Positions 3,678-63,171 of a DNA stretch of 64,000 nt are shown here, in pieces. The stretch is from assembly GCA_043821445.1 (NCBI GenBank), contig JBDRCT010000049.1, forward strand, positions 3,872 to 67,871. Direction: 5' to 3'. Both the position numbers and the translations under genes were made by a program. Numbering within the stretch: position 1 is the first letter of the stretch; each line of letters starts with the position of its first letter. The stretch is from Candidatus Omnitrophota bacterium (lineage in GTDB: Bacteria; Omnitrophota; Omnitrophia; Omnitrophales; Aquincolibacteriaceae). Below the pieces are notes generated by a model. That model ran no database searches. It was not told the origin of the DNA and saw only the letters and a program-made list of their open reading frames with translations.

Positions 3678-3752
3678 ACGCGCAACGGGCAACGCTCAAC
3701 GCACAACGGAAAGACCAGAACGTTGCGCTTTGCGCGTGGTACATTGCGCAGA
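3678..3752. repeat. REP-like palindromic element, copy A (GCGCAACGGGCAACGCTCAACGCACAACG ... CGTTGCGCTTTGCGCG)
   Basis: imperfect inverted repeat immediately after glnS stop; same family as copies at 57892, 59032, 59952 and an in-ORF copy at ~36880. Confidence 0.5.
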
Positions 3753-22067: not shown

Positions 22068-23567
22068 ATGAAAACGGCGATCGCAAAAAATACAGATACC
22101 TGGCTCTTAGGCCGCATCAAAAAAGATGAGATCACAAAATATCTTGATCAGGGCCGTGATTTCATTGATGACGATGCGATCTGGAAAAAGATCGAAGCGG
22201 CCCGGGAGCCTGATGCATCCACCGTGCGCGCCATTCTCGCGCGTTCACTCGCCATCCAGACGCTTACACCGGAAGAGCTCGCGACTCTGATTCATGTGAA
22301 GGATCCCGGCATGCTTCGCGAAATGCAAGAAGCCGCCCTTGCGATCAAGAAAAAAGTCTATGACAACCGGATCGTTACTTTCGCGCCGCTTTATATGGGA
22401 AATTATTGCGTCAATAACTGCGCCTATTGCGGATTCAAGCATGAAAATCTCAGCACGAAGCGCCGCGTCCTTTCACAGGACGAGATCCGTAGGGAAACTG
22501 AAAGCCTGACGGGAAAGATCGGCCACAAGCGCATTATCGCGGTCTACGGAGAGCATCCGCTGACCGGGATCGATTATATCCTTGAAAGCATGAAGACGAT
22601 CTACGACGTGAGGGTACCGACCAAGCACGGTTTCGGCAATATCCGTCGTATCAATGTGAATGCCGCGCCGATGTCGATCGAAGAGCTCGTTCGTCTCAGG
22701 GACGGCGGCCTTGGGACTTATCAGGTGTTTCAGGAAACCTACCATCATGAGACCTACGCAAAACTTCATCCGAAAGGGACACTCAAATCCGATTATCGCT
22801 GGCGGCTCTATGCCATGCATCGCGCGATGGAAGCGGGGATCAATGACGTGGGGATCGGGGTCCTGTTCGGGCTTTATGATTGGCGTTTTGAAGTGATGGC
22901 GCTTCTTTATCACGCGATCCACCTTGAGGCCAAGATGGGGATCGGTCCCCATACGGTATCATTCCCGCGTATGGAGCCGGCGCTCAACTCTGAATACGCC
23001 GAACATTCCCCCTATAAAGTATCCGACGAGGATTTCAAGAAGATCATCCTGCTCATCCGTCTCGCCATTCCTTACACGGGCATGATCATTACGGCGCGGG
23101 AGACTGCCCAGATGCGGCGTGATGCGATCGGTCTCGGGATCACACAGACCGATGCTTCCACTAAGATCGGGATCGGAAGTTACAGCGAAGAGGGAAAGGG
23201 CCAGGAATCCGAACGTCAGCAGTTCCTGTTGGGCGACACCAGAAGTTTGGATGAATTAGTCCGGGATTTCGCGGCAATGGGGCACATTACTTCCTTTTGC
23301 ACCGCAGGATATCGTTGCGGCAGGACGGGCAAATGTATTATGGACCTCTTGCGCGGCGGCCAGGAAGGGAAGTTCTGCAAACTGAACGCTGTGCTGACCT
23401 TTCAGGAATGGCTGGATGATTTCGCCACTCCCGCGACGCGTGAAGTAGGGCTCCGGGTGCTGGAAAAAGAACTTGAAGAGATCAAGGTAAGAAATCCCCA
23501 GGGGTTCCCGGTCTTTTATCAATTTCTTGAACGTATTCGCAAAGGGGAGAGAGATCTGTTCCTTTAG
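22068..23567 (+). CDS. HydG/ThiH-family radical SAM enzyme
   Basis: 'GNYCVNNCAYCGF' CxxxCxxC; C-terminal extra cysteines 'FCTAGYRCGRTGKC...FC' as in HydG-type; 499 aa. Confidence 0.65.
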   Translation: MKTAIAKNTDTWLLGRIKKDEITKYLDQGRDFIDDDAIWKKIEAAREPDASTVRAILARSLAIQTLTPEELATLIHVKDPGMLREMQEAALAIKKKVYDNRIVTFAPLYMGNYCVNNCAYCGFKHENLSTKRRVLSQDEIRRETESLTGKIGHKRIIAVYGEHPLTGIDYILESMKTIYDVRVPTKHGFGNIRRINVNAAPMSIEELVRLRDGGLGTYQVFQETYHHETYAKLHPKGTLKSDYRWRLYAMHRAMEAGINDVGIGVLFGLYDWRFEVMALLYHAIHLEAKMGIGPHTVSFPRMEPALNSEYAEHSPYKVSDEDFKKIILLIRLAIPYTGMIITARETAQMRRDAIGLGITQTDASTKIGIGSYSEEGKGQESERQQFLLGDTRSLDELVRDFAAMGHITSFCTAGYRCGRTGKCIMDLLRGGQEGKFCKLNAVLTFQEWLDDFATPATREVGLRVLEKELEEIKVRNPQGFPVFYQFLERIRKGERDLFL

Positions 23568-23572
23568 GGGAT

Positions 23573-23645
23573 CGGGACTCGCTCCTCGCGCCTCGGGACT
23601 CGTAAAAACGAAGAGCCCAAACGAGTCCCTAGTCCCGTTTTTTTA
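23573..23645 (+). terminator. rho-independent terminator (compound hairpin CGGGACTCG...CGAGTCCCTAGTCCCG + T7)
   Basis: direct+inverted copies of CGGGACTCG followed by TTTTTTT. Confidence 0.5.
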
Positions 23646-31189: not shown

Positions 31190-31275
31190 GCTCACAGTGA
31201 ATGGGCTAGAAGCAAGATTCAGAGAAGCAGAGAGGCATAGATCTTTTCTTTGTTTCTTGTCTCTATGTTTCTTAT
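31190..31275. repeat. hairpin element AGAAGCAAGA...GAGGCATAGATC...CTTGTCTCTATGTTTCT (related copy at 32905-32990)
   Basis: shared ~50-nt similarity between two intergenic terminator-like hairpins. Confidence 0.35.
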
Positions 31276-32159
31276 TTTTCCGGGGTATTGCGCCGCACTT
31301 GCTCGCAGTAGACTTCGTGCGCTTCTTTGGCCGTCGCGTTGTGGTGAATGATGGCATTTAAAGCCGCAGCCATCGGAAGAGGGTGCGGGTTTTGCCAGAC
31401 ATTGCGGCCAAGATTGATCCCGACCGCGCCTTTCTGCATGCCGTCCGCGACGAATTCCAGGACCTCAAGCTCGGTCTCGCATTTCGGGCCGCCGGCCATC
31501 ACCACCGGGACCGGGCATCCCCGGACGACCTTGTCAAAATCCTTTTCACACCAATAGGTCTTGACCACACGCGCGCCGAGTTCGGCGGCGATACGGCACG
31601 CGAGAGCCAAATACCGAGCGTCGCGTTTTTCCATCTCTCTTCCCACGGCAGTGACGGCCATCACCGGGATCCCATAGCTCTCACACTCGTTGACGAGTTT
31701 CGAAAGATTGGAAAGCGTCTGCTTTTCATAATCGCTTCCGACGAAGATGGAAACGCCCACGGCCGCAACGTTCAGCCGTATGATCTCTTCGATAGACGTG
31801 GTGACGACTTCGTTGGCAAGGTCTTTGCCGACCATGCTGGTGCCGCCCGAGACCCTCAAAATAACGGGCTTTCCGAAGGTCGGGGGGATGACCGCGCGTA
31901 ACGTGCCCCGCGTGCAAAAAAGCGCGTCAAAATGGGCCACGAGGGGTCTGATCGTTTCCCACGGTTGCTCGAGCCCGGTGGTCGGCCCCTGGAAATAACC
32001 GTGATCGATCGGCATGAAAAAACAATGGCCGTTCGGCATGAGTTGATTCAATCTGTTCTTCATTCCCCAGTCCATCATAGGACCTCCTTGAGCATTGTTC
32101 GTGAGTTGGTCCCTAAGGCACAGGTACTCCATGACCCTCTGCCCCTTAGGCATGTTCAA
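31272..32159 (-). CDS. class I aldolase, DhnA/FbaB family (fructose-bisphosphate aldolase or ADH-synthase-like)
   Basis: 'FFMPIDHGYFQGP' and TIM-barrel Lys-region consistent with DhnA family; alternative start sites possible. Confidence 0.5.
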   Translation of the reverse strand: MNMPKGQRVMEYLCLRDQLTNNAQGGPMMDWGMKNRLNQLMPNGHCFFMPIDHGYFQGPTTGLEQPWETIRPLVAHFDALFCTRGTLRAVIPPTFGKPVILRVSGGTSMVGKDLANEVVTTSIEEIIRLNVAAVGVSIFVGSDYEKQTLSNLSKLVNECESYGIPVMAVTAVGREMEKRDARYLALACRIAAELGARVVKTYWCEKDFDKVVRGCPVPVVMAGGPKCETELEVLEFVADGMQKGAVGINLGRNVWQNPHPLPMAAALNAIIHHNATAKEAHEVYCEQVRRNTPEK

Positions 32160-32345
32160 ATAAGTGCCGGGCTATCCAATTACTACGGCAAATTATACTC
32201 ACAAAGACCAATAAGGGCATACTTCTTTTTTGGGCCAGAGGACAGCGGCCAAAGTACAACGAGGGATTTTTTTTGTTGCCTCCTGTCCTGGGATCGTTGA
32301 ACTTTGAGCTTTGCGCCTCGCCCTATTTTAAGATATACTTCGGCT

Positions 32346-32903
32346 ATGGAGAATATTTCGATCACTACTGAGTTTACGCCGAATCCGAACTCGCTTAAGT
32401 TCAATGTGAGCATGCCGATCTGCGCGCATGGAACGGTCCATTTTGCGTCCAAAGCCGAGGCGGGGAAATCCCCCCTGGCCGCCAAGCTTTTTGAGATCGA
32501 ACACGTCAAAGAAGTGATGATCGGATCCGATCTCGTAACGGTGACGCGCGATGAAAAAGCGCAGTCCTGGAGCATTTTAATTCCGCGTGTGACCGAGACG
32601 ATACGTGAATTTCTCGTCTGCGGCAAGACGAACCCCGAGGCTTGCGAGCAATGCGCGGATACCACGAATCCTGGTTCTGCGATCGAAAAAAAGATCGTCG
32701 AGATCATCAATGAACAGATCCGGCCGGCCCTTGCCCGGGATGGCGGAGACGCGGTTTTCTGCGGCTTTGCGAACGGTGTCGTAAAACTCCAATTGAAAGG
32801 CGCCTGTTCCGGGTGCCCGAGTGCGACCATGACCCTCAAGATGGGCATCGAAGCTTACCTCAAAGAACGCATCCCCGAAGTCAAAGAAGTCGTTAGGGTG
32901 TAA
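32346..32903 (+). CDS. NifU/Nfu-type Fe-S cluster scaffold (Nfu_N + NifU C-terminal domain)
   Basis: 'FTPNPNSLKF' Nfu_N and 'GGDAVFCGFANGVVKLQLKGACSGCPSATMTLK' CxxC NifU motif. Confidence 0.7.
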   Translation: MENISITTEFTPNPNSLKFNVSMPICAHGTVHFASKAEAGKSPLAAKLFEIEHVKEVMIGSDLVTVTRDEKAQSWSILIPRVTETIREFLVCGKTNPEACEQCADTTNPGSAIEKKIVEIINEQIRPALARDGGDAVFCGFANGVVKLQLKGACSGCPSATMTLKMGIEAYLKERIPEVKEVVRV

Positions 32904-32904
32904 C

Positions 32905-32990
32905 TTTCAGAAGCAAGAGGCATAGAAGCTAAGAGGCAAAGAAAATCTATGCTTCTTGTTTCTCTGCTTCTTCCGTCGGTTATGTGAATT
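32905..32990 (+). terminator. hairpin terminator-like element (paralog of 31190-31275)
   Basis: AGAAGCAAGAGGCATAGAAG...CTATGCTTCTTGTTTCTCTGCTTCTT imperfect palindrome after NifU-like stop. Confidence 0.35.
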
Positions 32991-33292
32991 CAACCTTCCT
33001 TGATTTGGCCGATACTTTAAAGACAAAAAATCCACTTTAGGGGGGAATATGGCTAAAAAAGTTTTCAGGAAACTTTCTACGAGCAAGGTCACGACGTTCA
33101 AAATCCGTAACCGGCGCGGCTATGCTGCGATCTTCATGAATAATCTTACCGAGGGGAAAACGGTGGGAATTGCCCTGGCGCGTATGGCCAAAGCTGCGAA
33201 GCGGATGGGGTATCTTCTTGCGTAAGGAGCACGGAGTACGGTGTCTTGCGAGTTCTTCGCCGTATGCCGTACCCCGTACTTGTTTCTAGCTT

Positions 33293-33462
33293 CTAGCGGC
33301 CGCTGGCATCCTTGCGCTTTGCGAAGCAATCCTTGCAATAGACCGGACGGTCTTCTCTCGGCTTGAAAGGAACTTCGCATTCCTTTTTGCATTCACCGCA
33401 GATCGCCTTGTGCATCTCACGCGGCGCGCCTCCGAAACCACGGCCTTCTCCTTGAAACCCCA
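33293..33462 (-). CDS. small zinc-ribbon protein (CxxC...CxxC)
   Basis: 56 aa 'CGECKKECEVPF...YCKDCFAKRK'; strong RBS GGAGGAG 7 nt upstream of ATG. Confidence 0.45.
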
Positions 33463-33568
33463 TGTTATCTCCTCCTGTTGGCACTGATGTCAGTGCAGTT
33501 GTGGGAAAAAATTCCCGAAAAACCATAACTTTGTTGAAAATCGCAGGAGAGCCTCAAAGGCCTCCGCG

Positions 33569-34048
33569 TTACGACCGGGGACCTTTCCGGTGGCGAAAAA
33601 AAGGCTTGTCGCCGTGACCGAATCCGCGGGGTCCTGCGCCCGGCTTCCGGTCAAAAGGCCTCTCCTGGCCAAAGCTTCTTTCTCTTGGGCGGTCCTGTGA
33701 GAATCCACCTTCGCGTGCCCGGTCCTTTGAAAAACCGCCTTCCCTGGGACGGCCATGCGAAAATCCGCCTTCCCTGGGGCGATCATGAGAAAAACCCTCT
33801 TTCCGTGGACCGCGGTTAAAGTTCCCCTTGCCGTGATGGGCCCCGCCCCCAAAGGAAGGGCGGAAGGGTTTTGAAAACCGCTTCTCCCTGTCCCCGAACG
33901 GTCTTTCCGGTGACTGTCCGATCAAGATATCTATTTTCTTCTCAAGAAAGTTCAGCTGCTGTTGCATCTTTTTGATCAGAGACACAACATCGGCGTCGGT
34001 CTGCAGGGGAACGGAGAGTGCCTCATTTTCTTCTGAATGTTCACTCAT
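33569..34048 (-). CDS. coiled-coil + RG/RGG-repeat low-complexity protein
   Basis: N-terminal heptad region then ~11-aa tandem repeats 'REGGFS[HKQ][DG]R[PA]' (nt ~33690-33830). Confidence 0.45.
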   Translation of the reverse strand: MSEHSEENEALSVPLQTDADVVSLIKKMQQQLNFLEKKIDILIGQSPERPFGDREKRFSKPFRPSFGGGAHHGKGNFNRGPRKEGFSHDRPREGGFSHGRPREGGFSKDRAREGGFSQDRPRERSFGQERPFDRKPGAGPRGFGHGDKPFFRHRKGPRS

Positions 34049-35222: not shown

Positions 35223-38200
35223 GTGAACCACTCTCGGTTATTTAAAACGCTCATTGCGCTTTTCACCGTTGTCACGTTTTCAACGACAAGCGTGATCTGG
35301 GCTCCGGACAGTTTTGCCGTGGCACAAGCGATCCGTGTTCCGGCTCCTGTTGCTCCCGAAGTTCCCATCCCTTATCAGGCCAAGCTTGATCCCGGCATTC
35401 AATTTTCAATCCCTCAGGAACTTGGGACGCTTCAATATTTCAAGGCCGGCAAAGGCCCGATGGTCGTTCATCTCCAGACCGCGCACGGTCATTATCAAGC
35501 ACAGCAACGGATCAGGGCGCTTCTGCATCATTTGGACAAACAGTATGGTATCAAAACACTCCTCGTAGAAGGCAGCGCGTTCAAGCTCGATCCCTCGATC
35601 CTGAATTTCTTTCCGAAAGATCCCAAGCTCACGCAAAAGGTCAATGACGCGCTCACGAAGCAAGCGCTTGTGAAAGGGCCGGAGCTTTATTTATTGGATG
35701 AGTTAAACGGTAAAACGAGTCCTGCGCCGCAAGCATTCGGCATCGAAAACCTTGAAGCGTACCGCGAAAACGGCCTGTCGTTCATCGATGTCCTGAAAGA
35801 AAAAAAGAAAACGGAGAAATTCCTCGCCTCCATGAACGAAGGGATCGAGCGTCTTTCCGCGGCGTACCTCAATGACGCGCTGAGGAATTATCTGAAGCAG
35901 CTTGAAGGTTTTGAAAAGAACCAGCTCCCGCTTGATGCGTGGCTATCCCTTCTGAAAAAAGAAGCGCTGAAGCGGCTGAAGCTCGATCTGACACAGCCGG
36001 GTTCCCAGCTCGACTGGCCGATGCTCGTTCGCGTTTTTAAGGTGCAGGAGCTTTCTTCAAAATTCGATAAAGATGCGTTCATGAAGGAGCGGACGGAATT
36101 TCTTAAAGTTCTGAAGCGCTTTCTTCCATCATCCTATGCTCAGATCGAGCAACTGCTCGAATCGGAACAGGCCAGCCGGCAATTACCTGCTCCCGAAACA
36201 GGCCTGCTTTTCGAGAACATGGTCAAGGCCCTGCCGCGCGATTTCAATTACGAGGCCTACCCGGACGTTTGTTATTTCGTTGGGCGTCTGCTTCTTCAAA
36301 GCGAATTGAAAGCACCGGAATTGATGCAAGAGGCCGAGAAGCTTTCCTCGAAAGTCGCGGACAAACTTGCCAAGACGCAGGCCGAAAAAAATCTCGTGGC
36401 ACTTCTGAAAGATTACCGGCTGTTGCAGAAGTTGTTCGCGCTAGAGCTCACTCCCGCTGATTATGATCAAATTCTTGGAGCGCGGAAGGCGGATGGTGGA
36501 GGACGATTGAAGCCTTCCAATCTTGTTAAGCAATTGAACGGCGCCATCCTCCATCCTTCATCCGGTATCCAAAGAGTTAAAGACGTTAAATTTACCCACA
36601 TCGCCGAACTTAATCAGTTATTCGACGCGGCCATGAAATTTTACGCCGGAGTGAAAGAGCGCGACGGTTTGATGGAGCAGATGATCGAAAAACGCCTCCG
36701 AGAGACCGGCGCCGGCAAAGTAGCGGTCATTACCGGCGGTTTCCACTCCGAACCATTCAAAAATTATTTTTCGTCGAAGGATTATTCGTACGCTCTTATC
36801 TCGCCGCGGATCACGGAAAGCGATGAAATAGGACATCAGGCGTATGTGGAGAATATGCTGAACTTTGCGCAACATTTACAGCGCAACGCGTCCGCCACAA
36901 TGCGTCGGTCGGATCCGTCCTCCGGCGGACAACGCGCAACGCGCAACGTAAGCAATTCTGCGTTGAGCGCGAGCGAGGCGACAAGAGAACTCGAATTCCT
37001 TTCTGACCCGCAAGTCTTGGTAGGTGATTACGGCATCAACGCCGCCGCCGTGCGCATCGAAGTCCGCAAGATCGTCTCCACCGTCGCCGGAAGGACGGCG
37101 CTGTTACAGACTATAGACCGCAGCCTACAGCCTACAGCAAAAGCTTTGGGTCCTCAGTCCCCGGATTCTGTTCTTCCGTCTGAAAAATCCCGCTCCGAGG
37201 CGAGAGCTGAGAAAAAGCCCGTAACGATTTCACGGAGGTTAATTGTTCTGTGGGGGACCGCAGCGGCAGTGGGCGGTCTATTGGCTATGGCATGCAGGTC
37301 GATTGCTGCACCGAGCGAAGTCAAGCTGGCTGTCAGCATTTCGTCTGCTCCAAACCTCACCCCGGCCGATCTTACCGGGTTTCCCGAAGCACCCAATCTT
37401 TTTACAACGATCTTTAACCCGGGCAGAGCCACGGTGCAGATCCTGGGGGATGATCAGGGACGAGGCATGCACTTTGCTTTTAATACGGGAACCGATGGTT
37501 ATGTGGGTGCAGGACTCGAGTTTTTTTTACCGGGAGTTAAAGATTCGGCAAATTTAAGTTCCTTGAATGAATTGCGTTTTGAGCTTCACGGGAATGTTCC
37601 GGGTGGCAAGGTCAAAATGGATGTCATCGATGCCGATGGCAAGAAGGTTACTGTTTACTTAACCGGTATTTCCACAACGGAAGGAAGAATCTGGCAAATT
37701 CCGGTATCGATCCTTCAGGGCGTTAATATGGTCCGGATCCGCGACATTAATTTTGTGGCGGAAGGACCTCAGAACTTTAGCGGAGAACTCCACGTTAAGT
37801 ACAATAAACCCTCCGCAAGCCGTTCGGAAATGCGCGGGGAGGAACGATTCACGAAAGAACAAATCCAGTCAGCGCTGAAGGATTTTCAACCAACGTGGCT
37901 CGATTATGCGTTTGTCGAGACCGGCGCAAAGCGCAGGATTGACGCCGCCAACTTTCTCGGGGAAACCAAAGACCCTCGCGTTGCTGACGCGTTGATCAAT
38001 GTTTTGAAAAGTGATAAGCATCCCGGTGTTCGAGTCGCGGTCGCCAAAGCTCTCGGCAAAATTACAGATCCCCGTGTTTTTCCGGCACTGAGAGATGTTT
38101 TTGGGAAAGAAAAAAATGACGATGTGTGGTTCACGATCGCGGGAGTCCTTTGGGAGGCAGAAGACCCGTGGATCCACACACGGATGGCCGCTGCTCTCGC

Positions 38201-41200
38201 GGATCATTCCCCCTTTGTCCGGAAAATGGCCGTCCAGTTTTTTGGGGCGAATCATGTAGCCAGTGCCATTTCCATGTTGCGGAATGCTTTAAATGATGAT
38301 TCCGAAGATGTAAGAACAGCTGCCGCGGCGGCTCTCGAATGGATCACGACCACATCGCTAGCAGAGATTTCCCGCTCGGAAATGCGAGAGGTGACAAAAC
38401 CATTGGCCGAGGCGGTTGCCGGGAGGATCCGTTATGCCGCAGCTTTGGGGAAGCCCGGTTCCGGGAAGGGAACCTTACTACAGCGATTTGTTGCGGAACT
38501 GAACCGTCATCTTGACAAAAACCATCCGTACGTGATCTTAAGCACCGGAGATGTTTTTCGGGCGATCGCGGAAAAAGTTGCCGCGAAGAAAGAAGGAAGA
38601 GTCCCGGACCTCCAAAAGGTAGGGATCTTTGAGAGCTTTACCGTCCCGGATTCCGTCATCAGCGCGATGCAGGAAGGGAAAATCATCTCAGATGAGATCA
38701 CGATCGATCTCGTCAATGAAGTTTTACGGCTGGATTTCTTCAAAAAAGCCCGCGGTATTTTCTTTGACGGTTTTCCGCGGTCCGCCGGGCAATTGGCGGC
38801 ATTAGAGCAAGGCAAGATAGGGATCGGGGATAAGCCGCTGGTCATGGATTTTAATTTTATTTTGGACATCGAAGATCAAACCGTGTACAAGCGCGCCGCC
38901 AGCCGTGTTGCCGAAGAAAAACTTGCCGCTGTTCGCGAAAAAAGAGAACCCAAGATCCGCAAGGATGACCTTCCTGAAAGGGTGAAGACGCGGATCGAGG
39001 ATTATGAGTCGGTCACGAGCCCGGCGGTCGAAACGAAGCGCGGTCAACCCGATACCCTCACAATCAATGCCAACGTGAAGCCGATCGACGGCGTTTATGA
39101 AGATTTCCTCCAAGGACTTGACGCGTGGATCGCAATGCACCCCCCTCGCTCGGAAGCGCGGTTCACAGCTGGGGAAGAGGGGATCGTCCGTCGGGCAATG
39201 AAAGATTTGGAGATGGGTTGGTTTGATTCTTTTTTTGAACGCGAGATCGCGACGCCGCGGCGCGTGGCCGCCGTTCAAAGCCTTGATGCGATCAGAGCAT
39301 CTCTGAGGGTTTCCATATTAAGGGATCTTTTGGCGAAAGAGAAAAATGGCGATGTATGGTACGCGATGGCATCCGCTCTTTGGCAAGCAGGGGACCCGTG
39401 GATCCGCCAGCGGACGGTCGCCGCTCTCGGGGAGGACTCCTCCTCTATACGCCAAATGGCCGCCCAACTTCTTGGGGAGAATCATGAAACAAGCGCTTTT
39501 TCCGCGTTGACGGCGGCCTTGAATGATCCTGATGAAAGTGTGCGGGAAGCCGCCTCGGAGGCTCTCGAATGGATCATGACCACATCGCCGGTACTGGCGG
39601 CCCGCTCAGAAGTGAGGGCGAAACTTCAGTCGCCTTTTTTTACATTATCCGGCGAACGAAAGATTGGTGAATCGATCCGCATGGAGAGGATGTGGCCTGA
39701 GATTCATGAAATGAAGATCTTGATCTCACTCCATCGGGGGAAAAACGGGAAATTGCTATTAGATCTATGGACACATACTCCGGTAATTGCCGGGAAGATC
39801 CACACGGATGCGGTCAATTGGGAACTGGACGGTCCCGAGGAGGAGATCCTCGCGGTTTTTCAACGTCTCCGGGAACCCGCGGTACAGCAGCCGTTGCGTG
39901 AAGCCATTGAGCGAGATCTAGAACCAGGTGATTTTTATTCAGAAAATGAAAGGTTTGAAACGAAGCTTACTCCGTGGGTCGAGAAGCTTTTAAATGGGGA
40001 GATCGTTTCCGTCGTTACGGGGCAATCAGATCTCAGTCAGCAGCCTCCAGCAGAAGCTGCCGCGAGAGTTTTAGCCGAAAGCCGCTCCGAGATGAGGCTG
40101 ATGCCGCTGCTGGCGCTTGCGGACGGGAGTGGGCTTGCCGGCGTGATCAGCCAACTGCGTCAAGCCTGGCACGAAAACGCTCTTGTGATCGTTGCGGTCG
40201 GCCTGGGTCTTTGTGAAATAGGTTATTGGGCCTATAGAACGTGGCAGTTAAGGAAAAAGCTTAGCCACTTTCCCAATGCCGTGAAAAGAGTGAAGGATGC
40301 GGTTAGGAGGTTTGCTGAAAAGACAGAAGAGGACGAACGGCGTTCGTCTGCGAATGATCTCGAATCCATTTATGTCGACGGATTTTTGACGCGTATTCTA
40401 TGGCGCAATATTCCGGATTCAAAACTTTTACAGATCGAACAAGAAATCAAAGAAGGTCGGGATCCGGTCCTTCAATTAGTGCCTGACGGGAATGAAGTTC
40501 TAATGGAATGGACGAGACAAGTTCTTGAACTCCGCTCTTCGGCCTATTTTCCGAGTGGCGGCGAGGATCAATACGTCTCATCAGAACCCCAGGGATGGTA
40601 CGGGTCGATTGAAGTCACCGCCGGCGAGCAGTCCCGCTCGGAAGCAAGAGGAACGCCGAAAGGAGGCGATTGGGAAGCCGCGGCGCGGGCCAGGGTATCA
40701 GAAATACAACGAAAAGAGCAAGAGGAGGAGGCCCGGGCGTTGGCTAAGATGGAAGGAGAGCGAGAGGCGATTCGGAGCATGACAACGCCACAGCTTCTTG
40801 CGCTGAAGGAAAGAGAAGTCATGGCGTTCAGCGCGGCACAGATCCAGGCGTTGACGCCTGCGCAGCTTCGTGTGCTGGAAGGGACAGATCAGGAGAAGTG
40901 GCTGAATGCCCGAGCTAATGAATTGCTGGCACAGCAAGCAAAGATTATGAAAAAGTCCCGCTCGGAAGTGAGGGTTTTTGGAAATGATAGGTTCATACCG
41001 CTCATGCGGGCAACGGTACTGTCACTCGCGATAGCAGGCCTCTCGGGATGCGCTCCAGTAATTGCAGGAATTAAAACTATGCCTTTACCTCAAGGCGAGG
41101 AATTGGGTATTCCGTCGCCCCTAACCATTGAAGAATTTCAGGAAGCAATAAACAATATGTTTGATCCCGATTCACCCACTCCACCGGATCTCAGTCTGGC

Positions 41201-44200
41201 GACGTTCCGGGAATGGCAGCGGGATGCTAAATACATGGAGGCTTTTACCCGAAAATACTTGCGCGCATTGGGGTATCAGATTCGTAGTGAAGACTGGCTT
41301 CGTGGCTTTGCCATTTGGTATGCCGCGCCAGATCACGGCGATCGTCCCTATTGGGAATATCAGGAAGAGATTTACGAGAGATTAGGGGAGTGGGAAGCAA
41401 ATGGCTATATTATAAGATTCTCCGTCCCGATTTTTCCGTTTGGCCGCTCTGAAGTGAGAAATACGTCAGTCCAGGCTGAGCAGCCCAAACATCCCATGTT
41501 TATCACCTTAGAAGTAAATAAAGACCTGCAAGGTTTGGATTTCGGCGATGTTGAAAAAGCAATCGCGAGCGGGAAAATGGCTATTGCTGAAGTTTCGGTT
41601 GATTGGGCAAGGAAAATCAAAGAAACGTATCCCAATGATGTCTACACTATTTTTATAACTCCTTTAAGCGAAAATCAAATCAGAGAAAGAATGCAAGAAA
41701 CGGGACAAACGCGGGATGCCGTTATTTTCGAGGAGATGAGCAGGCGACAAAAAGAACGTGCGCTAGAAAAACCTACCCCTGAAGAGAAACAACTCTCACG
41801 CGCCAAAGGAGCTGTTATCGAAATGGCGAGGCAGAATGAATATAATGCCGTTATTGTCAGTAATGAACTAAAAGATTTAGAAAGAGACGATGTCCGATGG
41901 GCCGGCGATGAAGGAGCTGCAGTGGTTGAGCAGTTTATGGCTGCTGTTGATGCTGCCCGAAAGGCGGGAAAAAAATTAATTCTATATTCGGGTCCTTCCG
42001 CTACCGGAAAATCCCCCTTGTGGAACCAAATACAAAAAAAACACGGCGATCAATTTTCACGCATTGTTCTTTATACAACGCGTGGCCTTCGCCCAGGTGA
42101 AAAAGATGGAGTCGATTTTCATTTCCGTTCCGTTAATGATCTTCAAAATCTGATGAATGAAAAAAATGGTCGATCCGAGGCGCGAGCGTCAGAAGAAACT
42201 CCTGCTGACAGGTTGATCAGTGGTCGCAAATTTACCGTTATCGATGTTGCGGAAAATCCCTATGCTATTAAAGTGATCAGTGATCCCGACTACAAGAGCC
42301 TGATCCTGTATGGGTTCTCGAATGCGGCTCGTGCTCTGGGAGACCTGGTCGTGCCTTTTTTTATCACGAATAAGTTGTCTGTTACCATTGACGGTATTTC
42401 GCAAGATAGTACCGTGATATTACAAAAAAAAGTGATGCCAGCTAGTGATCAATTCCAAACTTATCTGGAAAACAATGACCTGCCAAAAGCGATCGAACTT
42501 CTAAAAAAAATGGTTGAGATCGATCAAGAGATCATGCGCAGGGGATACATCCTCACCGATTTTAAAGTGGAAAACTTTGGCATTACAGCGGATGGTAATG
42601 TGCTTTTGCTCGACCCTACGGGGGTGGTTGATGGGCTTGGTCGCACGCAACCGCCGGAAGATTTCTACCATTATTACAATCAAAACAATTTCTTGTTTGT
42701 AAAAAGTGGAAGTTATCATCGCTTCTATGATGATTACAAGAACAACAAACATGCGAAAGAACTGTTCCAAGCTTTTCGCGATCTCACAGGTGTTGACTTT
42801 ACAGGAATATTACAAACAACAAAAATGAATGTGATGATTGCCTTGGCTCTCTCGGAATCTTTTGACCCCGATAATCCATTTAGCAAGCATGTTCAGCACG
42901 CGAGGCACTACCTGGAAGGGTTGACGCCCTTTGCCGCATTGTCCCAGCAACTTAAAGAGCCGGTTGCTATGCCTGCCATCCAAGTTGAAGCGGAAAGTTC
43001 TTTGCGGGGGTTTTTAGGCCATGAACAAAGGCGGGAATTTAATTTACAAGACTTGTCCATTTGGAACGAAGAAAAAGCGATCAATATTCATGTCCCTTTA
43101 CAGGAAACTAAACTTGTAACTATCGAATCCCGCTCTGAAGTGAGGGACACTCAGACCACTCCGAGCCGTTCTGCCGCGAGACAGACAGCTCAGATCGGCA
43201 GGACGTGGAAGGATTTATTCAAAGAAAATTTCAATTGGGGTATTGAAGAGGGCCTGATCACGGCGGGGTTCAGCATCGGACTCTACGCCGGACTTTTTGG
43301 CCTACCGTTTTTAATGCCATTAGGACTCAATCCCGCCCATACGGCGCTCATCGGTACCTTGCTTGGGGGCGCTCTTTATCCTGCTGTTGTCGCTGTCCGT
43401 GCAAAGTGGTTGCAAGCTGCAAAGACGGAAGATGCGGGGGGATTTGATGTAAAGACATTCGTTGATACGCTTTTAGAAGCCTCCCGGGAAGCGCGAAGCC
43501 TTTTTGATTCGGAGCAATTGGATCTTGCAAATAATATTGAGAGCATTGTATTCCCGAGAATAAGGGCGAGGAAGCTTACGTACGCCCAGCGTGCTGCTGC
43601 GAAAGCGGAGTTGAATGGCAGGTTGCAACGGGTGAAAGAAGAGATCGCTCAGATGGAGACGAGCGGAAATTTATCGGGTAATTCCCAATCTGTATTAAAT
43701 GCCCGTTTGAGGGAGATCGAGAATTCATCGAGTGATTTCGAGGCCGCATTAACTTTCCGCTCGGAAATAAGGCAGATCCTTGAGGCATTGAGAAAAGAAA
43801 AACACGTTGCGGGTGTTATAAGCACGTTTATTTTTGGGTTGGCCGGGTTTCTTTTTGGAATTTATCAGGGGATATCATTTTTTTCAAGATCAAATATCAG
43901 GCCGTATAGTACGGATGACGTATTTTGGATGGCTATTTTTGTGCTATTGGGGGGAGAATTATTAGGCGTCGCCGGTGGGATTATTGGCCTCGCCGTTTAT
44001 GGCGTTGTTTATGCCGGATTTTCTATCGTTCGTCTCGTTGTGCACGCTTTTTGGAGCGTGGCGGGTTCGGTGAGACGTAGTGGATATAGAGCGGGAAGGG
44101 GACTTGCGGGGGAAGAACGTACGACAGGTCATGCTCCGAAACGCTCGGAAGTGAAGGTTACGGAGAGGGAATTCCAGAGGGCATTGAAGGACCTGGAGAC

Positions 44201-47200
44201 CGATTGGTTTGACACGTTCTTCATTAAGAACGCAACGCAACGGCGCGTGGGCGCTATCAAAGTCCTCGGTGAGAGCAAAGATCCGCGCGCGGTTCCAGCA
44301 TTGACCGGGTTATTAAAGGATGCCGCGGTCCGTTCGTCCGCCGCTGAAACGCTCACTTCTATTAGATCCAGCGTTCCCGCGTTGCAGGCCGAAGCCGGGT
44401 TTACAACGGAGGAAGCGGGGATATTCCGCCGGGCAATAGAGGACCTGAAATTCCAATGGACGGATCTTTTCCTGTTTGAGAGAGAAACACGCCGGCGTGT
44501 GGGTGCCGTCAAAAGTCTTGGTGCGATCCAAAATCCGGCGCTCATTCTCGAGTTATACAGTCTTCTGGTGAAAGAGGAAAAAGAAAAATGGGTCAAGACC
44601 GATGAGTGGTTCGCGATCGCGGGAGTCCTTTTGCGAAAAGGGGAAACCCGGATCCTCGAAACAGTTTTTGATTCTCTTACGGATGATATCCCCGTTGTCC
44701 GCAAACGGGCCGCCGATTTTCTCGGGGAAAATCATGTGGTGAGCGCCGTTCCGGCGCTGACCCTTGCTTTGAAAGACAGTTTTGTGAAATTCGCTGCCGC
44801 AGCAGCGATCGAAAAGATCACGGGCACACCGCCGTTCAAGAAAAAGGGAGCCTTCGAATTTTTTGGCGTGAATCCTGTCGTGTTGCCGAGGACGACCTTT
44901 TTTGCTTCAGGGGGCTTGGGTTTTCTTTTCGAATTAAAGCTCATTTCGCCGTTCGTGAAGCCAGGGGACCCCCTTGGGAAAATCGCGGGCCTTCTTCTGT
45001 TGTCCTTGGGAAGCATCATCGGAAGCTATATCCTGATATCGATCGTTCAAAACAGGATCGTCGGCCTTGACCGTCTCGGACGGCCGCTTGTGAAAAAAGA
45101 AAAAGCGTCTGCCCGCTCGGAGGCGCGGAACTTGGCATTGAGCGTGCCGGCAGGGCTTCTCGAAAAGGCTTCCGATTGGTTGCATAGTCCGTGGGGGATC
45201 GTGGACTGGATCGTGGGGGGCGTTCTTTTTGGCATGGCAGCGGCTTTCGCGTTTGCCACCCTTTTGGTGGCCCTTTATACGATCGCTTCTATTTGGACCT
45301 CTTTCCAGAAAAGTGCCATCAGGAGTTTGGAAGAGAAGGAGGGCTTTGCCGCGATAGAGTTTCTGAGGGGCCTGTTGCAGAAAACCAGGGGATTTTCTTA
45401 TCTGATCTTTTCGGATGTTTATAACGAAACCGAACTTGCGGCTATTGCCGCCCTGACACACCTCAATGATTCCTTCTTGACCGGTTTTTTAACTTCGGGC
45501 GAAGGGTTTAACCGGTATCTCCGCGCCAGTGACGAGGTCAAAGCGGCCGTCGACCGCTGGAGTCCTGAAGCGTTCAGCGCCCAGATCCTCCGGAACTTAT
45601 CGTCGAATGATCTTTCACCGGCGCAATTGATTGAGAAAAGGGAGGATCTTGCCGGGCTCGGGATCTTGAGGCCTTTTTTGGTGGCGGCCTTCTCTCATTC
45701 CGATCCCAAGATCCAACGGATGGGGCTGGAAATTTTGGCAGGCTACGAGTTCTTCACGTTTGGCAGGGTGCCCACGGACCATGAAATATTCGATCCGGTG
45801 ATCCGGGAAGCCCTCGAGCCGTTTTTGCAAAAGGCGATCTCCCAGACTTCCGACGACGACCTTTTCGATAAGACAGCGATGATCATGATCCGGCAGGGTC
45901 GTTCCGGTGAGATCGTGCCCGGGGCGCTCCAGAGAATGTCCGCCGGGAACCCGGACCACTTTCCGCTGCTTGTCAAAGAACTTGCGACCGCGGAATATCT
46001 TGACGCGACTTTATTCCATCCCGACTTGAAGATCCGGGCACTGGGGCTAAAAGCCATCGAAGATACCGGTACGGTCGCTGCTCAAGACCAGTATGCTGAG
46101 AAATATCAGGAACAGCTCATTCCATTACTTCAGGATCCGGACAATGATGTTTGCAGCGGGGCAGCTATTTTACTGACCGTCGTGGGTCACGGAAAATCCG
46201 TGCTTCAAGCCGCGGCGTCCAGGAATTGGAACGAATTGCCGGAGCTTGTTAATTATTTTGATCTGCATTGGAAAGAAGCGGTCGAACTCGCCGGGCCCGA
46301 ATCGTTGCCTCTTTTGAAGTTATTGATCGACCGGAGGAAAGCCTGGGCATACGCGGACGACCCGATTGACGGTGTGGATGCCGCTATTCTTGGGAAGAGC
46401 CAGGCAGGATTGAAATTCGACCGGAGCCACATTATCGCTAAAAAAACAGAAGAACTCCGGGAATTGAAAGCAGCGGTGGACCGTTTGTCCGCCCGTTCTG
46501 AGGTCCGCCATTTGCGCCGGTTGGGCGCTCCGGACAGGGACATCGGCGACATCGTGGAAACCGTACGGGAGTCCCTGGACGGGGCAGTGACGGACGATGA
46601 ATCGCTTTGGGCCGCGCAGCAGCGGATGGGGGATTTGCCGGACCTGCTGAAAGGGCCCAGGACCGAACGGGAACTTGGGATCGAGATCGGTGAGTCCTGG
46701 AAAATACCGAATGTTCATTATCAATCCCGCCGTTCCGAAGCCCGTTCCGAAATCAGGGAACGTCTCGCACCGGTTTTCAGGGCTTTTGGGATTGATGAAT
46801 CGAGCGGAAAAACGGAAATTGAAAAAACGAAAAACCAGGCGGACCGATGGTATGTCGAAGGAATGACGCGGCAGCATGTGCATCCCAGAGGTACCGGAAC
46901 TGACGGCGCGGACGATAAGGACGGCCCCTATGCGCCGCTCCACATAAGAAATGAGAAAGGCTCGCTTAGCGAAGTTTCTCACACTGGAAATGCCGTGGTC
47001 ACGGCGATGATGGAGGACCAGGAGTTGCAATCGGTCGGGGTCTATCAACGTGCTTTTCTTGATCATCATCCCCGGGAGCGGGAGTATCTTGAGGCCGCTG
47101 CCAAGACAAATCTCATCTGGAATACGCTCGACGGCGGTATCGGCGAGAGTTTGATGCGTGAGGCGTGGCTTTTGAACAAGGGGCTTCGATCGCGTTTGAA

Positions 47201-52717: not shown

Positions 52718-52747
52718 TTGACACCTCTGAACGATTTGCTGTAAAAT
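52718..52747 (+). promoter_or_regulatory. sigma70-like promoter for trpS (TTGACA-N18-TAAAAT)
   Basis: consensus -35 and near-consensus -10, ~40 nt upstream of trpS start. Confidence 0.35.
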
Positions 52748-54556: not shown

Positions 54557-54567
54557 TATAACAACTG

Positions 54568-54640
54568 CCCAAGTGTCAAAGTATCAACGTATCAAAGCGT
54601 CAAAATGCTTTGATGCCTTGACACTCTGGAACTTTGACAC
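54568..54640. promoter_or_regulatory. shared intergenic motif block (AGTGTCAAAGTATCAA, palindrome ATCAAAGC-N8-GCTTTGAT, CCTTGACACTCTGGA, TTGACA x2)
   Basis: same 15-16-mers recur (one inverted) at 56641-56700. Confidence 0.35.
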
Positions 54641-56640: not shown

Positions 56641-56700
56641 AGTGTCAAGGTTTCAGAGTGTCAAGGTATCAAAGTAGGCAGTTCCGATACTCTGACACAA
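56641..56700. promoter_or_regulatory. shared intergenic motif block (AGTGTCAAGGT x2, GTATCAAAGT, TTCAGAGTGTCAAGG = revcomp of CCTTGACACTCTGAA)
   Basis: paralogous to 54568-54640. Confidence 0.35.
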
Positions 56701-57891: not shown

Positions 57892-57958
57892 ACAGCACAA
57901 CGCTCAACGCACAACGCGCAACGTGATAACCATTCGTTGACCGTTGCGCGTTGCGCCC
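57892..57958. repeat. REP-like palindromic element copy B
   Basis: ACAGCACAACGCTCAACGCACAACGCGCAACGTGATAACCATTCGTTGACCGTTGCGCGTTGCGC. Confidence 0.55.
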
Positions 57959-59031: not shown

Positions 59032-59092
59032 ACAGCGCAACGGGCAACGCACAACGCGCAACGTTAGAACTTCTCGTTGAGCATTGCACGTA
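59032..59092. repeat. REP-like palindromic element copy C
   Basis: CAGCGCAACGGGCAACGCACAACGCGCAACGTTAGAACTTCTCGTTGAGCATTGCACG. Confidence 0.55.
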
Positions 59093-59119
59093 GAACCTGT
59101 AGTAAAGGTGATAAACTTT

Positions 59120-59953
59120 ATGTTTAAGAGGATCGTTATAGTAGGCCTGGGATTGATGGGCGGCTCATTGGCGGCGGCGTGCCGGAAAAAATTCCCCATG
59201 GCCCGGATCATCGGGGTCAGTCGCAGTCGCGAAGCCCTTGCACTCGCCAAAAAAAAGAAGTGGGTTCACGAAACCACGCGGGATGTGTCGCTCGGCGCGC
59301 AGGGCGCGGACCTCGTGGTGCTTTGCACGCCCGTCGACACTTTCCTTCCTTACCTCAAAGTGATCGACAAGGTTTGCGCGAAAGGTGCCTTGGTGATGGA
59401 CGTCGGCAGTGTCAAAGTGTCCGTTCTGAAAGAAGCAGGCTCGCGCCGTTGGAAGAACCTCTCGTTTGTCGGGTGTCATCCCATGGTCGGTTCTCACAAG
59501 CGGGGGATCCAGGCGGTCAATCCCGCGCTCTACCAAGGAGGTTTGGTGCTTTTGACGCCTGACCAGAGAACCTGCCCCAGCGCCTACCGAAGGGCCAAAA
59601 AGTTCTGGCAGGGCTTTACTCCCAAGATCGTGGAGTTGACCCCCGAGATGCATGACCGGCTCGTGGGGGAGGTTAGCCATCTGCCGCACGCGATGGCGGC
59701 TTGTCTTGTGCGCACCGTGTCGGTGCCCGCGCTCAAAATGGCTTCGACCGGTTTTTATGACACCACGCGCATTGCCGCCGCCGCTTCATCGATCTGGCAG
59801 CCGATCTTTTCCGCGAACCGGAAAGTCATGCTCGGTGTTTTGAGCCGTTTCGAGAGAGAGTTCCGGACATTCAAAAAGCTCCTTCGTTCGCAGGACCCGA
59901 AAGCGCTTGAGCGCTATCTTGATAAGGCTCAGAAGATTCGTGAGCGCATTTAG
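59120..59953 (+). CDS. tyrA: prephenate dehydrogenase
   Basis: 'IVIVGLGLMGGSLAAA' Rossmann and 'HPMVGS' catalytic His motif. Confidence 0.8.
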   Translation: MFKRIVIVGLGLMGGSLAAACRKKFPMARIIGVSRSREALALAKKKKWVHETTRDVSLGAQGADLVVLCTPVDTFLPYLKVIDKVCAKGALVMDVGSVKVSVLKEAGSRRWKNLSFVGCHPMVGSHKRGIQAVNPALYQGGLVLLTPDQRTCPSAYRRAKKFWQGFTPKIVELTPEMHDRLVGEVSHLPHAMAACLVRTVSVPALKMASTGFYDTTRIAAAASSIWQPIFSANRKVMLGVLSRFEREFRTFKKLLRSQDPKALERYLDKAQKIRERI

Positions 59954-60025
59954 CGCAACGCACAACGCGCAAAGCGCAACGTAAAAGCTTTTTCACTGTG
60001 CGTTGACCGTTGCGCATTGAGCGTA
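59952..60025. repeat. REP-like palindromic element copy D
   Basis: AGCGCAACGCACAACGCGCAAAGCGCAACGTAAAAGC...CTGTGCGTTGACCGTTGCGCATTGAGCG. Confidence 0.55.
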
Positions 60026-60186
60026 AAAAAGACCCTTCCCAAATCCGGAAGATATGCTATACTCCACGCGTTCGCATTGATTTCGGTTCCGGCCCTGCGC
60101 CAGGGATCGAGAGGGAAAAACGGTGCGGACCCCCATTTTCATGCGATCCCAATGAGAAGGGGACTCTCAAGGAGGTTTTCCCTATT

Positions 60187-63014: not shown

Positions 63015-63019
63015 CTAGA

Positions 63020-63171
63020 CTGAAGACCTCAGACTAGAGACTACAGACCAGAGCCGAAAGTCCGCGGGTGTTTCCTTGCTCAGAAAGGATACCTCTATTT
63101 ATGGATGGGCGGGATGGATTTAAAAAGTCTGCGGTCTATGGTCTGAAGTCTGTGGTCTAAAGCGGCGGGTA
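63020..63171. terminator. convergent intergenic region with imperfect inverted AGAC-rich repeats (likely bidirectional terminator)
   Basis: GAAGACCTCAGACTAGAGACTACAGACCAGAG vs GTCTGCGGTCTATGGTCTGAAGTCTGTGGTCT. Confidence 0.3.

Follow-up and report, generated by a model that had tools for sequence, protein, structure and literature searches.

The window analysed here, a stretch of 64,000 nucleotides (64 kb), holds a giant ORF and, on either side of it and within it, palindromes built from short tandem units, most of them set directly behind stop codons (Table 1). Pfam identified the genes in front of the first four elements listed as glnS, a class I/II aminotransferase (hisC-like), DAHP synthase and prephenate dehydrogenase (tyrA), and an Rfam search of the window returned two tRNAs and nothing else.

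Table 1. Tandem-unit palindromes in the 64-kb window and the giant ORF that hosts some of them
Feature	Position	Strand	Context	Folding z	nhmmer E
CAACG palindrome	3678..3749	+	2 nt past glnS stop (TAG 3674-3676)	-2.4 (MFE -29.6)	1e-16
CAACG element	57892..57958	+	abuts stop (TGA 57889-57891) of hisC-like aminotransferase	-3.7	1e-17
CAACG element	59032..59100	+	2 nt past DAHP synthase (aroF) stop (TAA 59027-59029)	-0.2	2e-16
CAACG element	59953..60025	+	at tyrA stop (TAG 59951-59953)	-2.3	6e-20
CAACG/CAAAG-family copy	32236..32316	-	composite, with a nested palindrome inside		3e-6
Giant ORF, 5,802 aa	35223..52631	+	HEAT repeats, adenylate-kinase and guanylate-kinase domains		
In-frame CAACG copy	36867..36975 (main part 36878-36975)	+	giant ORF, residues ~549-585	-0.4 to +0.1	1e-8
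Nested 41-nt segment	36889..36929	+	within left arm of in-ORF copy; own palindrome GTCCGCC...GGCGGAC		
GGATGG / CCATCC heptamer arms	36485..36570	+	in giant ORF, either side of conserved coding segment LKPSNLVKQLNG		
NNNRTCAA octamer palindrome	54566..54640	+	~10 nt past scpA stop	-5.7	
GTCAA-family hairpin	56641..56700	+	5 nt past pheA (chorismate mutase-prephenate dehydratase) stop	-2.9	
AGACYNN x5 ... NNRGTCT x5 palindrome	63016..63165		occupies spacer of convergent fabF/lpxA	-3.8	
GGACTCG-family heptamer hairpin	23568..23644	+	abuts stop at 23565-23567		
AGAAGCA-family hairpin	31205..31275	-	abuts stop of minus-strand gene 31272-32159		
AGAAGCA-family hairpin	32905..32975	+	5 nt past NifU stop (32901-32903)		
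GGAGTAC-family hairpin	33226..33285		between convergent small genes 33049-33225 (+) and 33293-33526 (-)		

In the CAACG family, a left arm of three to four tandem NNCAACG units and a right arm of two to four CGTTGNN units enclose an A/T-rich loop, in which an A-rich part is followed by a T-rich part, and form a stem of ~25-30 bp made of 5-bp helices with an interruption every 7 nt. That this palindromic family is real, as a preliminary description of the locus had proposed, is borne out: all five copies quoted there were found in place, and CAACGCGCAACG, at no more than one mismatch, occurs 18 times in the window against 0.48 expected, which is not a random frequency and was reached by none of 100 shuffles, while CAACGNNCAACG occurs 26 times against 4.45 expected. 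TRF reports a period of 7 at 3678, 36930, 57895, 59035 and 59953. An nhmmer profile built from the four intergenic window copies and 12 metagenomic copies, with the in-ORF copy excluded, regained the latter at 36926-36969 and added a sixth copy at 32236-32316, bringing the members in the window to four after stops, one in a 5' spacer and one inside the giant ORF.

Four of these six copies start 0-5 nt past a stop codon. The one behind glnS is followed by a convergent tRNA-Gln (3757-3830), the one behind hisC has four left and three right units, the right arm of the aroF copy is degraded, and the tyrA copy shares one base, the G at 59953, with the stop codon itself. The last three are consecutive and intercistronic, lying between hisC, aroF, tyrA and rpsA, each 30-55 nt ahead of the next gene on the same strand. 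The minus-strand copy occupies the spacer of two divergent genes, the minus-strand gene 31272-32159 and NifU (32304-32903), and is therefore not at a gene end.

The preliminary description recognised the CAACG family correctly, but overlooked that the same tandem 7-8-mer palindrome layout recurs in at least six sequence families within the window, with the units CAACG, GTCAA, AGACY, GGAGTAC, GGACTCG and AGAAGCA. Its claim of a tight association with gene ends holds for this wider set too, as 11 of the ~13 hairpins of this design in the window start 0-13 nt past a stop. Such hairpins also lie 0-35 nt past stops in the related metagenome contigs L233, L235, L239, L181, L149, L150, L205 and L222, and the genome and its close relatives, probably Omnitrophota, carry at least six unrelated unit sequences, nearly always 0-13 nt past a stop. 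In the window, strict detectors picked up 3-7 palindromes, far from the chance level of 0-0.8 set by Markov controls; settings with a mismatch penalty of -1.5 or a strict k-mer rule missed most copies, and a looser version was calibrated on Markov controls.

Particularly informative is the copy inside the giant ORF, which consists of a vestigial GCGCAAC (36867-36873), ACAGCGCAACG (36878-36888), a left-arm core (36930-36948), a loop and a truncated right arm (36960-36975), and is read in frame as ...FAQHLQRNASATMRRSDPSSGGQRATRNVSNSALSASEATRE.... As described previously, it leaves the frame intact, and homologues align in the same frame on either side of it. It follows a domain (residues ~60-555) that is conserved in Omnitrophota proteins and for which a Foldseek search turned up nothing significant in the PDB (best E = 0.04), only faint resemblances to erythromycin esterase, ChaN and BcR135. 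In the AlphaFold model, pLDDT falls from 75-90 in this domain to below 50 at residues 560-605. The earlier suggestion that the linker tolerates insertion agrees with this predicted disorder and with the existence of homologues without any insert there (P0004, P0005, P0009, P0010 and P0014), from which we conclude that the site is tolerant. The in-ORF copy is an old in-frame member of the family at the disordered C-terminal edge of the conserved N-terminal domain; in this genome it is degraded, split by the nested 41-nt insert, and now encodes linker residues only. A 28-nt match to the nested segment, 93% identical, is found in L191, within a different in-ORF hairpin.

Among homologues of the N-terminal domain, L121, L122 and L191 have the corresponding site occupied, in the same frame, by a CAACG hairpin that is intact and 99 nt long, and L123 carries there a hairpin of a different heptamer family, of the GTACGCC type. 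An origin of the in-ORF copy by recent insertion is thus contradicted: other species have the element in their homologues, intact and with conservation of its nucleotides, and here it is decaying. Further in-frame hairpins of other families occur in L121, L122, L123, L127 and L191, two to four per relative, and the GGAGTAC unit of the window is also found in frame within L122 and L123. Apparent in-ORF copies in L157 were set aside, as their host ORF resembles translated non-coding sequence. In the homologous in-ORF copies, the arms reach an identity of 0.68 at third codon positions and the flanks 0.43 (Fisher p = 0.0016), and the loop is 0.38 identical; likewise, the GGAGTAC hairpin of L122 and L123 is 93% identical versus 75% for its flanks. 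Judged by these nucleotide identities, the arms appear to be conserved beyond the needs of the protein. In an RNAalifold alignment of three homologous copies, with three sequences only, the pairs were mostly invariant and just 2 of 31 were compensatory; the conservation could also be due to a sequence motif, to gene conversion or to constraint on the protein. When orthologous gene junctions were sought by synteny, to compare those that have an element with those that lack one, only fabF/lpxA (L123, L191) and trpS gave matches, and no spacer offered a clean case of presence and absence.

The reading we favour, with a probability of about 60%, places the CAACG elements as one family within a lineage-specific class of tandem-heptamer palindromes. 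These would be repeats of the STRR/REP type, acting at the DNA level and serving as 3'-end barriers, with the in-ORF copy an old member. Their units would multiply by slippage inside one arm, and whole elements would be copied, or swapped for one another, at hairpin sites, as the nesting and the family replacement at one site suggest. Copies would survive chiefly where they are harmless, in 3' and intercistronic spacers, and would there be transcribed into long imperfect hairpins, most plausibly barriers that stabilise mRNA or partially terminate transcription between cistrons.

The closest analogues are the cyanobacterial STRR heptamer hairpins and the Rickettsia RPEs. With the former, the elements share tandem 7-bp units, a mostly intergenic location, several unit families per genome and, by the folding and positions found here, inverted arrays able to form hairpins between cistrons. 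They differ in host, which is a probable member of the Omnitrophota/PVC (homologues of the window's proteins bear the name Candidatus Omnitrophica) and not a heterocystous cyanobacterium, and presumably also in the sequence of the six units named above. The usual description of STRRs is of direct arrays, hairpins being a special case, whereas here the inverted two-arm design set against a stop codon is the rule. To our knowledge, an STRR inserted in frame into a protein has not been reported. STRR heptamer hairpins between hupS and hupL have been proposed to raise transcript stability or to couple translation (PMC2670836), and a passage in PMC4046671 cites Vioque (1997) for an STRR within a functional gene, that of RNase P RNA. 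RPEs are palindromic repeats, recurrent and of several families, that lie in frame within protein genes, keeping the protein and adding a peptide where this is tolerated (PMC10969869), and the in-ORF copy resembles them in leaving its protein intact. However, RPEs are ~100-150 bp long, with a conserved peptide and a CGTC tag (PMC3733652), and occur in unrelated metabolic genes of an obligate intracellular α-proteobacterium; the elements described here differ in size, structure, ends and host, are built of heptamers in families based mainly in 3' spacers, and have their in-ORF copies clustered in one fast-evolving family of giant proteins. TAACTGA heptamer repeats of Beggiatoaceae, Cyanobacteria and Bacteroidetes are direct, lie just upstream of start codons and include one inverted set among 170 (PMC4679880); they are similar as abundant intergenic heptamers with a strict position relative to genes, and dissimilar in that our elements are inverted pairs just downstream of stops. 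No prior description of such elements in Omnitrophota was found in the literature.

The palindromes could instead be non-autonomous elements mobilised by a transposase, as REP/BIME by RAYT or MITE by an IS, and targeted to hairpins or post-stop sites, the in-ORF copies being chance in-frame landings. REP/BIME of proteobacteria, which are thought to act as RNA hairpins and are linked to RAYT transposases, are extragenic palindromes 3' of coding regions or in operons, come in several families and are documented within genes (PMC3733652). Several families per genome are found here as well, two genomes have the nested 41-nt segment, each in a different hairpin context, homologues vary in presence and absence, and L191 and L123 carry different families at one site, both next to lpxA. 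A REP, however, is an imperfect palindrome of 20-40 bp with a stem of 6-13 bp and a GTAG or CGTC tag (PMC3733652), while the present elements measure 60-75 nt (one 150 nt), with ~20-28 paired positions and three to four heptamers per arm. Their tandem-unit stems are two to three times as long, and neither end of the 16 aligned copies has a GTAG/CGTC consensus, the ends prolonging the pairing instead, as TCGCGCAACG...CGTTGCGCGA. On these grounds (no tag, ~25-bp stems of tandem heptamers) the REP label first given to the family does not apply. Loops vary between copies, which are therefore not recent copies of one master. Neither a RAYT nor any other transposase was detected among the window ORFs scanned with Pfam, and the aligned copies show no evident direct duplication at their flanks, the whole element itself being the palindrome. 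Since neither a transposase nor terminal inverted repeats nor a target-site duplication was seen, the mobile MITE of the preliminary description is unproven, and we regard transposase-driven mobility as unlikely.

Appreciably less likely still is that the elements are ordinary intrinsic terminators with repetitive stems, the in-ORF copy being a chance likeness or a terminator left over from a gene fusion. They do lie directly 3' of stop codons, two members occupy the spacers of convergent genes, and the GGACTCG hairpin at 23568-23644, the sole member with a T7 run after it, is terminator-like. None of the CAACG copies, however, is followed by the T-run of an intrinsic terminator, none was called on the plus strand in a scan with a terminator consensus, and terminator-like sites in the window stand at chance level (16 vs 13.7), so that the earlier view of the copies as likely terminators is not supported. 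The three consecutive copies behind hisC, aroF and tyrA, so close ahead of genes on the same strand, also speak against it. Folded as RNA, most tandem-unit hairpins scored z = -2.3 to -5.7 and three of the four intergenic CAACG copies z = -2.3 to -3.7, but the aroF copy folds weakly and the in-ORF copy no better than shuffles (Table 1). Folding and G-U counts revealed no asymmetry between sense and antisense (sense more stable in 13 of 27, Wilcoxon p = 0.49), and with equal folding on both strands nothing points to selection on RNA rather than DNA. As for the in-ORF copy, its profile match (E = 1e-8) weighs against chance likeness, and the fusion relic was rejected because the frame is kept on both sides of the insert and insert-free homologues run on in frame through residue T587, which is invariant.

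We assign a similarly small chance to a local and independent birth of each hairpin, by slippage and intrastrand template switching at every gene end and, in tolerant loops, inside ORFs, without copying between sites and with mutational bias accounting for the resemblance. This would fit the differing loops, the likeness of the adjacent hisC, aroF and tyrA copies, and the fabF 3' spacer of the close relative L123 (fabF protein 95% identical to the window's), where a hairpin of different sequence is partly alignable with that of the window. It is at odds with three findings: copies separated by 21-56 kb, as well as copies from other species, have the ACAGCGCAACG start and the loop type (T-A-rich, then T-rich) in common; the GGAGTAC unit is common to a window spacer and the in-ORF sites of L122 and L123; and the 28-nt nested segment is shared by unrelated contexts. 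Least probable is that the 5-nt cores, spaced every 7 nt and oppositely oriented in the two arms, are putative arrays for a protein binding DNA or single-stranded RNA (heptad-binding or OB-fold), the hairpin being secondary: the cores exceed the variable dinucleotides in conservation (0.82 vs 0.67), folding lacks strand asymmetry, cold-shock proteins bind heptamer repeats (reviewed in PMC4679880) and CAACGC heptamer arrays recur in PVC genomes (~55 of 120 genome matches listed, with all eight listed matches that have at least two exact downstream CGTTG units from Verrucomicrobiota), but this enrichment among the matches listed comes from a scan seeded with CAACGC itself, at least six unrelated cores in one 64-kb window would require as many specific binders, and inverted symmetry is universal, no direct-only array having been seen in the window.

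The in-ORF hairpins of the giant genes may be maintained nucleic-acid elements in coding sequence and not passengers, a tentative idea to which we give a low probability. It agrees with their recurrence at domain boundaries, where several species have them at the same sites, with their replacement there by other heptamer families rather than loss, and with arms that are more conserved than the well-conserved codons around them. If true, this would fit a role in the mRNA or DNA of very long genes, such as programmed pausing of ribosomes or RNA polymerase at domain boundaries, or internal points of processing or protection; it would likewise be in keeping with a copying mechanism, as yet undescribed in Omnitrophota, that targets hairpins in a site-specific manner.

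Should the pattern hold genome-wide, Omnitrophota, and perhaps the wider PVC group, would have their own class of gene-end repeats marking many 3' ends, REP/STRR-like yet built differently, which matters for annotating operons and terminators in this phylum, known almost solely from metagenomes. It would also add to the Rickettsia RPEs a second clear case of proteins being colonised in frame by palindromic repeats, and the linker-rich design of giant proteins may make these unusually permissive hosts. The excess conservation of in-ORF hairpins offers a concrete route to asking about selected structure in coding sequence. At a practical level, the heptamer-palindrome repeats probably cause contig breaks, and they introduce spurious peptides, for example QRATRN or EYGVRST, into predicted proteins.

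The palindromic copies that the preliminary description had proposed at five places, four behind genes and one inside a giant open reading frame (ORF), were borne out in their layout, their positions after stop codons and the Pfam names of the genes (see table), with period-7 arrays detected by TRF at each of them. In every intergenic copy of this CAACG family, the left arm comprises 3 or 4 tandem NNCAACG heptamers, where NN is mostly CG, CA, GG or CT, followed by a spacer of 10-20 nt that is A-rich first and T-rich after, and by a right arm of 2 to 4 CGTTGNN units. The core CAACGCGCAACG, with at most 1 mismatch, occurs 18 times in the window against 0.48 expected. A profile built from the 4 intergenic window copies and 12 copies from metagenome contigs, leaving out the in-ORF copy, recovered the latter (E = 1e-8) and also revealed a sixth copy of composite structure (E = 3e-6); it gave no further match below E = 0.7 in the window. 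The sixth copy, of mixed CAACG/CAAAG type, lies in the spacer of divergent genes and not at a 3' end. Within it are a run of eight T and a second palindrome, nested in the first (CCAGAGGACAGCGG / CCTCCTGTCCTGG). A tRNA-Gln (CTG) gene on the minus strand (3757-3830) is convergent to glnS and lies only a few bases past its CAACG element, such that the hairpin separates the synthetase gene from a cognate tRNA gene. In most CAACG elements, a stop triplet opens the loop directly after the last CAACG (CAACG followed by TGA, TAA or TTAG; by profile alignment, window positions 57924, 59064 and 59982 and metagenome contigs L233, L235, L167, L172, L150, L197 and L222). As the upstream ORFs of contigs L172 (5182-5913) and L239 (11673-12986) run through the left arm and end at this triplet, the element may perhaps supply a gene's stop codon.

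The same design, built from unrelated units, is found at other gene ends in the window. Strict detectors, which require that a k-mer recur every 7 or 8 nt and that its reverse complement then follow at the same spacing, made 3-7 calls in the window and 0-0.8 in Markov controls, and a palindrome-plus-periodicity detector made 6 and 0, respectively. By inspection, 11 of the approximately 13 hairpins in the window start 0-13 nt past a stop codon, and elements directly follow stops also inside the operon-like run of pheA, hisC, aroF and tyrA. The stems follow a regular pattern of 5-bp helices broken at the variable dinucleotides, and most hairpins fold as RNA far better than shuffled sequences (z = -2.3 to -5.7); the in-ORF copy of the window scores -0.4 to +0.1, and -1.7 for a longer segment. 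The 3' spacer of fabF carries a tandem-repeat palindrome both in the window (63015-63171, 157 nt) and in L123, a contig from a close relative with 95% protein and 87% DNA identity in fabF (1284-1361, 78 nt). Its units are AGACY/RGTCT in the former and GTCAC/GTGAC in the latter, and its left arms are still partly alignable, which argues for a hairpin that evolves fast at a fixed site.

Tandem-repeat palindromes in the window, with their genomic setting
Feature	Position	Upstream stop ends	Setting
CAACG element	start 3678	3676	after glutaminyl-tRNA synthetase (glnS; Pfam)
CAACG element	start 57892	57891	after class I/II aminotransferase (hisC; Pfam)
CAACG element	start 59032	59029	after DAHP synthase (aroF; Pfam)
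CAACG element	start 59953	59953	after prephenate dehydrogenase (tyrA; Pfam)
CAACG element, in-ORF	about 36867-36975		within giant ORF 35223-52631
CAACG element, composite	32236-32316		between divergent genes
NNNRTCAA octamer palindrome	54566-54640		after scpA
GTCAA-type palindrome	56641-56700		after pheA
AGACYNN x5 facing NNRGTCT x5	63016-63165		between convergent fabF and lpxA
AGAAGCA-type palindrome	31205-31275		after minus-strand gene
AGAAGCA-type palindrome	32905-32975		after NifU
GGAGTAC-type palindrome	33226-33285		between 2 convergent small genes
GGACTCG-type palindrome	23568-23644		the only one of these palindromes followed by a T-run

The giant ORF encodes 5,802 residues with HEAT repeats and adenylate-kinase and guanylate-kinase domains, and the CAACG copy reads in frame within it, as first described. 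In an alignment of 15 homologues, conserved residues Y541-L546 on one side and an invariant T587 on the other bound a variable insert, which contains the element; 5 proteins have no insert at this site. AlphaFold, run on the same 15-sequence alignment, predicts a confident domain at residues about 60-555 (pLDDT 75-90) and values below 50 at 560-605, which places the insert in a predicted disordered linker and upholds the linker location. The domain itself has no Pfam match, and Foldseek found no significant match in the PDB, with only faint similarity to erythromycin esterase, ChaN and BcR135. At the DNA level, the homologue-bearing contigs L121 (protein P0002), L122 (P0013) and L191 each have, at this position and in the same frame, a hairpin of CAACG heptamers 99 nt long, with the variant unit CGTAG in common, encoding SAQR..NAQ...V(E/D)RSxLxA(K/Q)EAT and folding with z of -5.0, -4.8 and -2.4. 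In the window copy, both the right arm (GCGTTGAGCGCGAGC, encoding SALSAS) and the core of the left arm (encoding QRATRNV) agree with these hairpins in reading frame as well as sequence, which makes the copies homologous. Its left arm is split by 41 nt with a small palindrome of its own, and its right arm is shortened. The in-ORF copy is real, but old and decaying. At the homologous site, L123 (P0001) has a GTACGCC-type heptamer hairpin instead and, since the giant-protein homologue adjoins lpxA in both L123 and L191, two different families occupy one syntenic site. A paralogue in L127, 28% identical and with an ORF of at least 3,586 residues, contains two CAACG-bearing sites of this sort: a clean hairpin close to the corresponding domain end, and a second one.

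In-frame hairpins are found elsewhere in these genes. L123 and L122 have (GGAGTAC)x4 ... (GTACGCC)x3 hairpins at 1 or 2 other variable sites, encoding EYGVRST...TPYAFRRT; L121 has one of GGATGGAG type; L191 has four within a single 3.2-kb stretch (CAACG, GGGGAACG/GTAACGG, GGACTCG and GTCACCA); and the window ORF has GGATGG/CCATCC arms on either side of a conserved peptide. The 41-nt nested segment (36889-36929) has a 28-nt, 93% match within the GGACTCG-type hairpin of L191 (1671-1698), which points to another small repeat, one that takes hairpins as its insertion sites. In P0007, a 50-residue insert (alignment A1, columns 607-657; ...GAQFIAPFHLGRDQSRPDQ...) looks to our eye like the translation of a GC-rich palindromic repeat that is not of the heptamer kind.

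Among L121, L122 and L191, identities at the three codon positions are 0.81, 0.85 and 0.43 in the conserved flank and 0.74, 0.93 and 0.68 in the hairpin arms, a third-position excess of the arms (Fisher p = 0.0016), while the loop reaches only 0.38. The GGAGTAC hairpins of L122 and L123 share 93% identity, compared with 75% for the 150-nt flanks on each side. Core pentamers are kept better than variable dinucleotides (0.82 vs 0.67), and RNAalifold finds only 2 compensatory pairs of 31 in L121, L122 and L191. This conservation points to nucleotide-level constraint or homogenisation, whether through pairing, motif or gene conversion.

Nearly every homologue of the first 900 residues of the giant protein bears the label Candidatus Omnitrophica or Omnitrophota. 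When species-representative genomes were scanned with CAACGCNCAACGCNCAACG, at least 120 loci matched (those listed are L001-L120), about 55 of those listed in PVC-superphylum genomes. As the core is built into the search pattern, this spread can serve only as an indication. Among the matches listed, 8 have at least 2 exact CGTTG units downstream, all in Verrucomicrobiota, whose metagenome-assembled genomes (Chthoniobacterales, Udaeobacter) commonly have CAACGC heptamer arrays, many of them paired in inverted orientation, e.g. (CCAACGC)n...(GCGTTGG)n; others, including Limnohabitans, Ottowia and Burkholderia, have long arrays that are purely direct and reach 19 units. Judging by these arrays, palindromes built from heptamers may be found throughout the PVC superphylum. 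A more specific pattern found elements exactly of the window type in metagenome contigs (L127, L149, L150, L167/L239, L172, L181, L184, L191, L197, L205, L222, L233, L235), most of them 0-35 nt past the stop of a long ORF and in many cases followed at once by the ribosome-binding site of the next gene (e.g., L233). Contigs of more distant homologues hold 0 elements in 24.6 kb (L244) and 1 in 24.1 kb (L245). The design is lineage-specific.

With copies, profile matches and in-frame position all checking out, the observation in the preliminary description is confirmed and its interpretation partly supported. What we observe is the sequence design, the placement right behind stop codons, a strong potential to fold, the coexistence of several families in one genome, nesting, changes of family at fixed sites and in-frame copies that are tolerated. 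Sense and antisense strands fold equally well (13/27, p = 0.49), making the palindrome as good a DNA feature as an RNA feature. We favour, at a probability of about 0.6, an STRR/REP-like repeat class whose units would be generated and spread at the DNA level and whose copies would be retained at gene ends. By analogy with REP and STRR precedents (PMC3733652, PMC2670836), they might act as 3' barriers or intercistronic stabilisers, to which we give about half that weight. The elements resemble STRRs in their heptamer unit, multiple families and hairpins between cistrons, although STRRs have cyanobacterial hosts and other units; like RPEs, they colonise proteins in frame (PMC10969869), but differ in size, structure and host. 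Spread by a transposase, as REP or MITE, is unlikely. In their size, their type of stem and the lack of a GTAG/CGTC tag, the elements fall outside the REP class proposed initially (PMC3733652). A purely local origin is distinctly improbable. Equally so are plain terminators, the other initial reading, since the CAACG copies are without the T-run of intrinsic terminators and a consensus scan found terminator-like sites only at chance level. Protein-binding heptad arrays are the least probable. Among known systems, the TAACTGA heptamers of the Beggiatoa type are arranged as direct repeats ahead of start codons (PMC4679880). Two papers on Omnitrophota giant genes make no mention of palindromes, hairpins, or tandem or inverted repeats, and a literature text search on palindromic repeats in Omnitrophota returned nothing relevant. 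More interesting than the single in-ORF copy are the heptamer-palindrome design as a general feature of gene ends and the in-frame hairpins of the giant-protein family, which recur and are unusually well conserved.

Just past the giant ORF and upstream of trpS is a sigma-70-like promoter close to consensus (TTGACA-18-TAAAAT, 52718-52747). A weaker extended -10 candidate (60036-60063) lies right after the tyrA hairpin and ahead of rpsA, so that an operon may end at the tyrA element. On the minus strand, an ORF without a Pfam match (33569-34048), whose 30-nt tandem repeat (33729-33796) encodes GGFSxDRPRE units, lies upstream of a small treble-clef zinc-finger protein (33293-33526).
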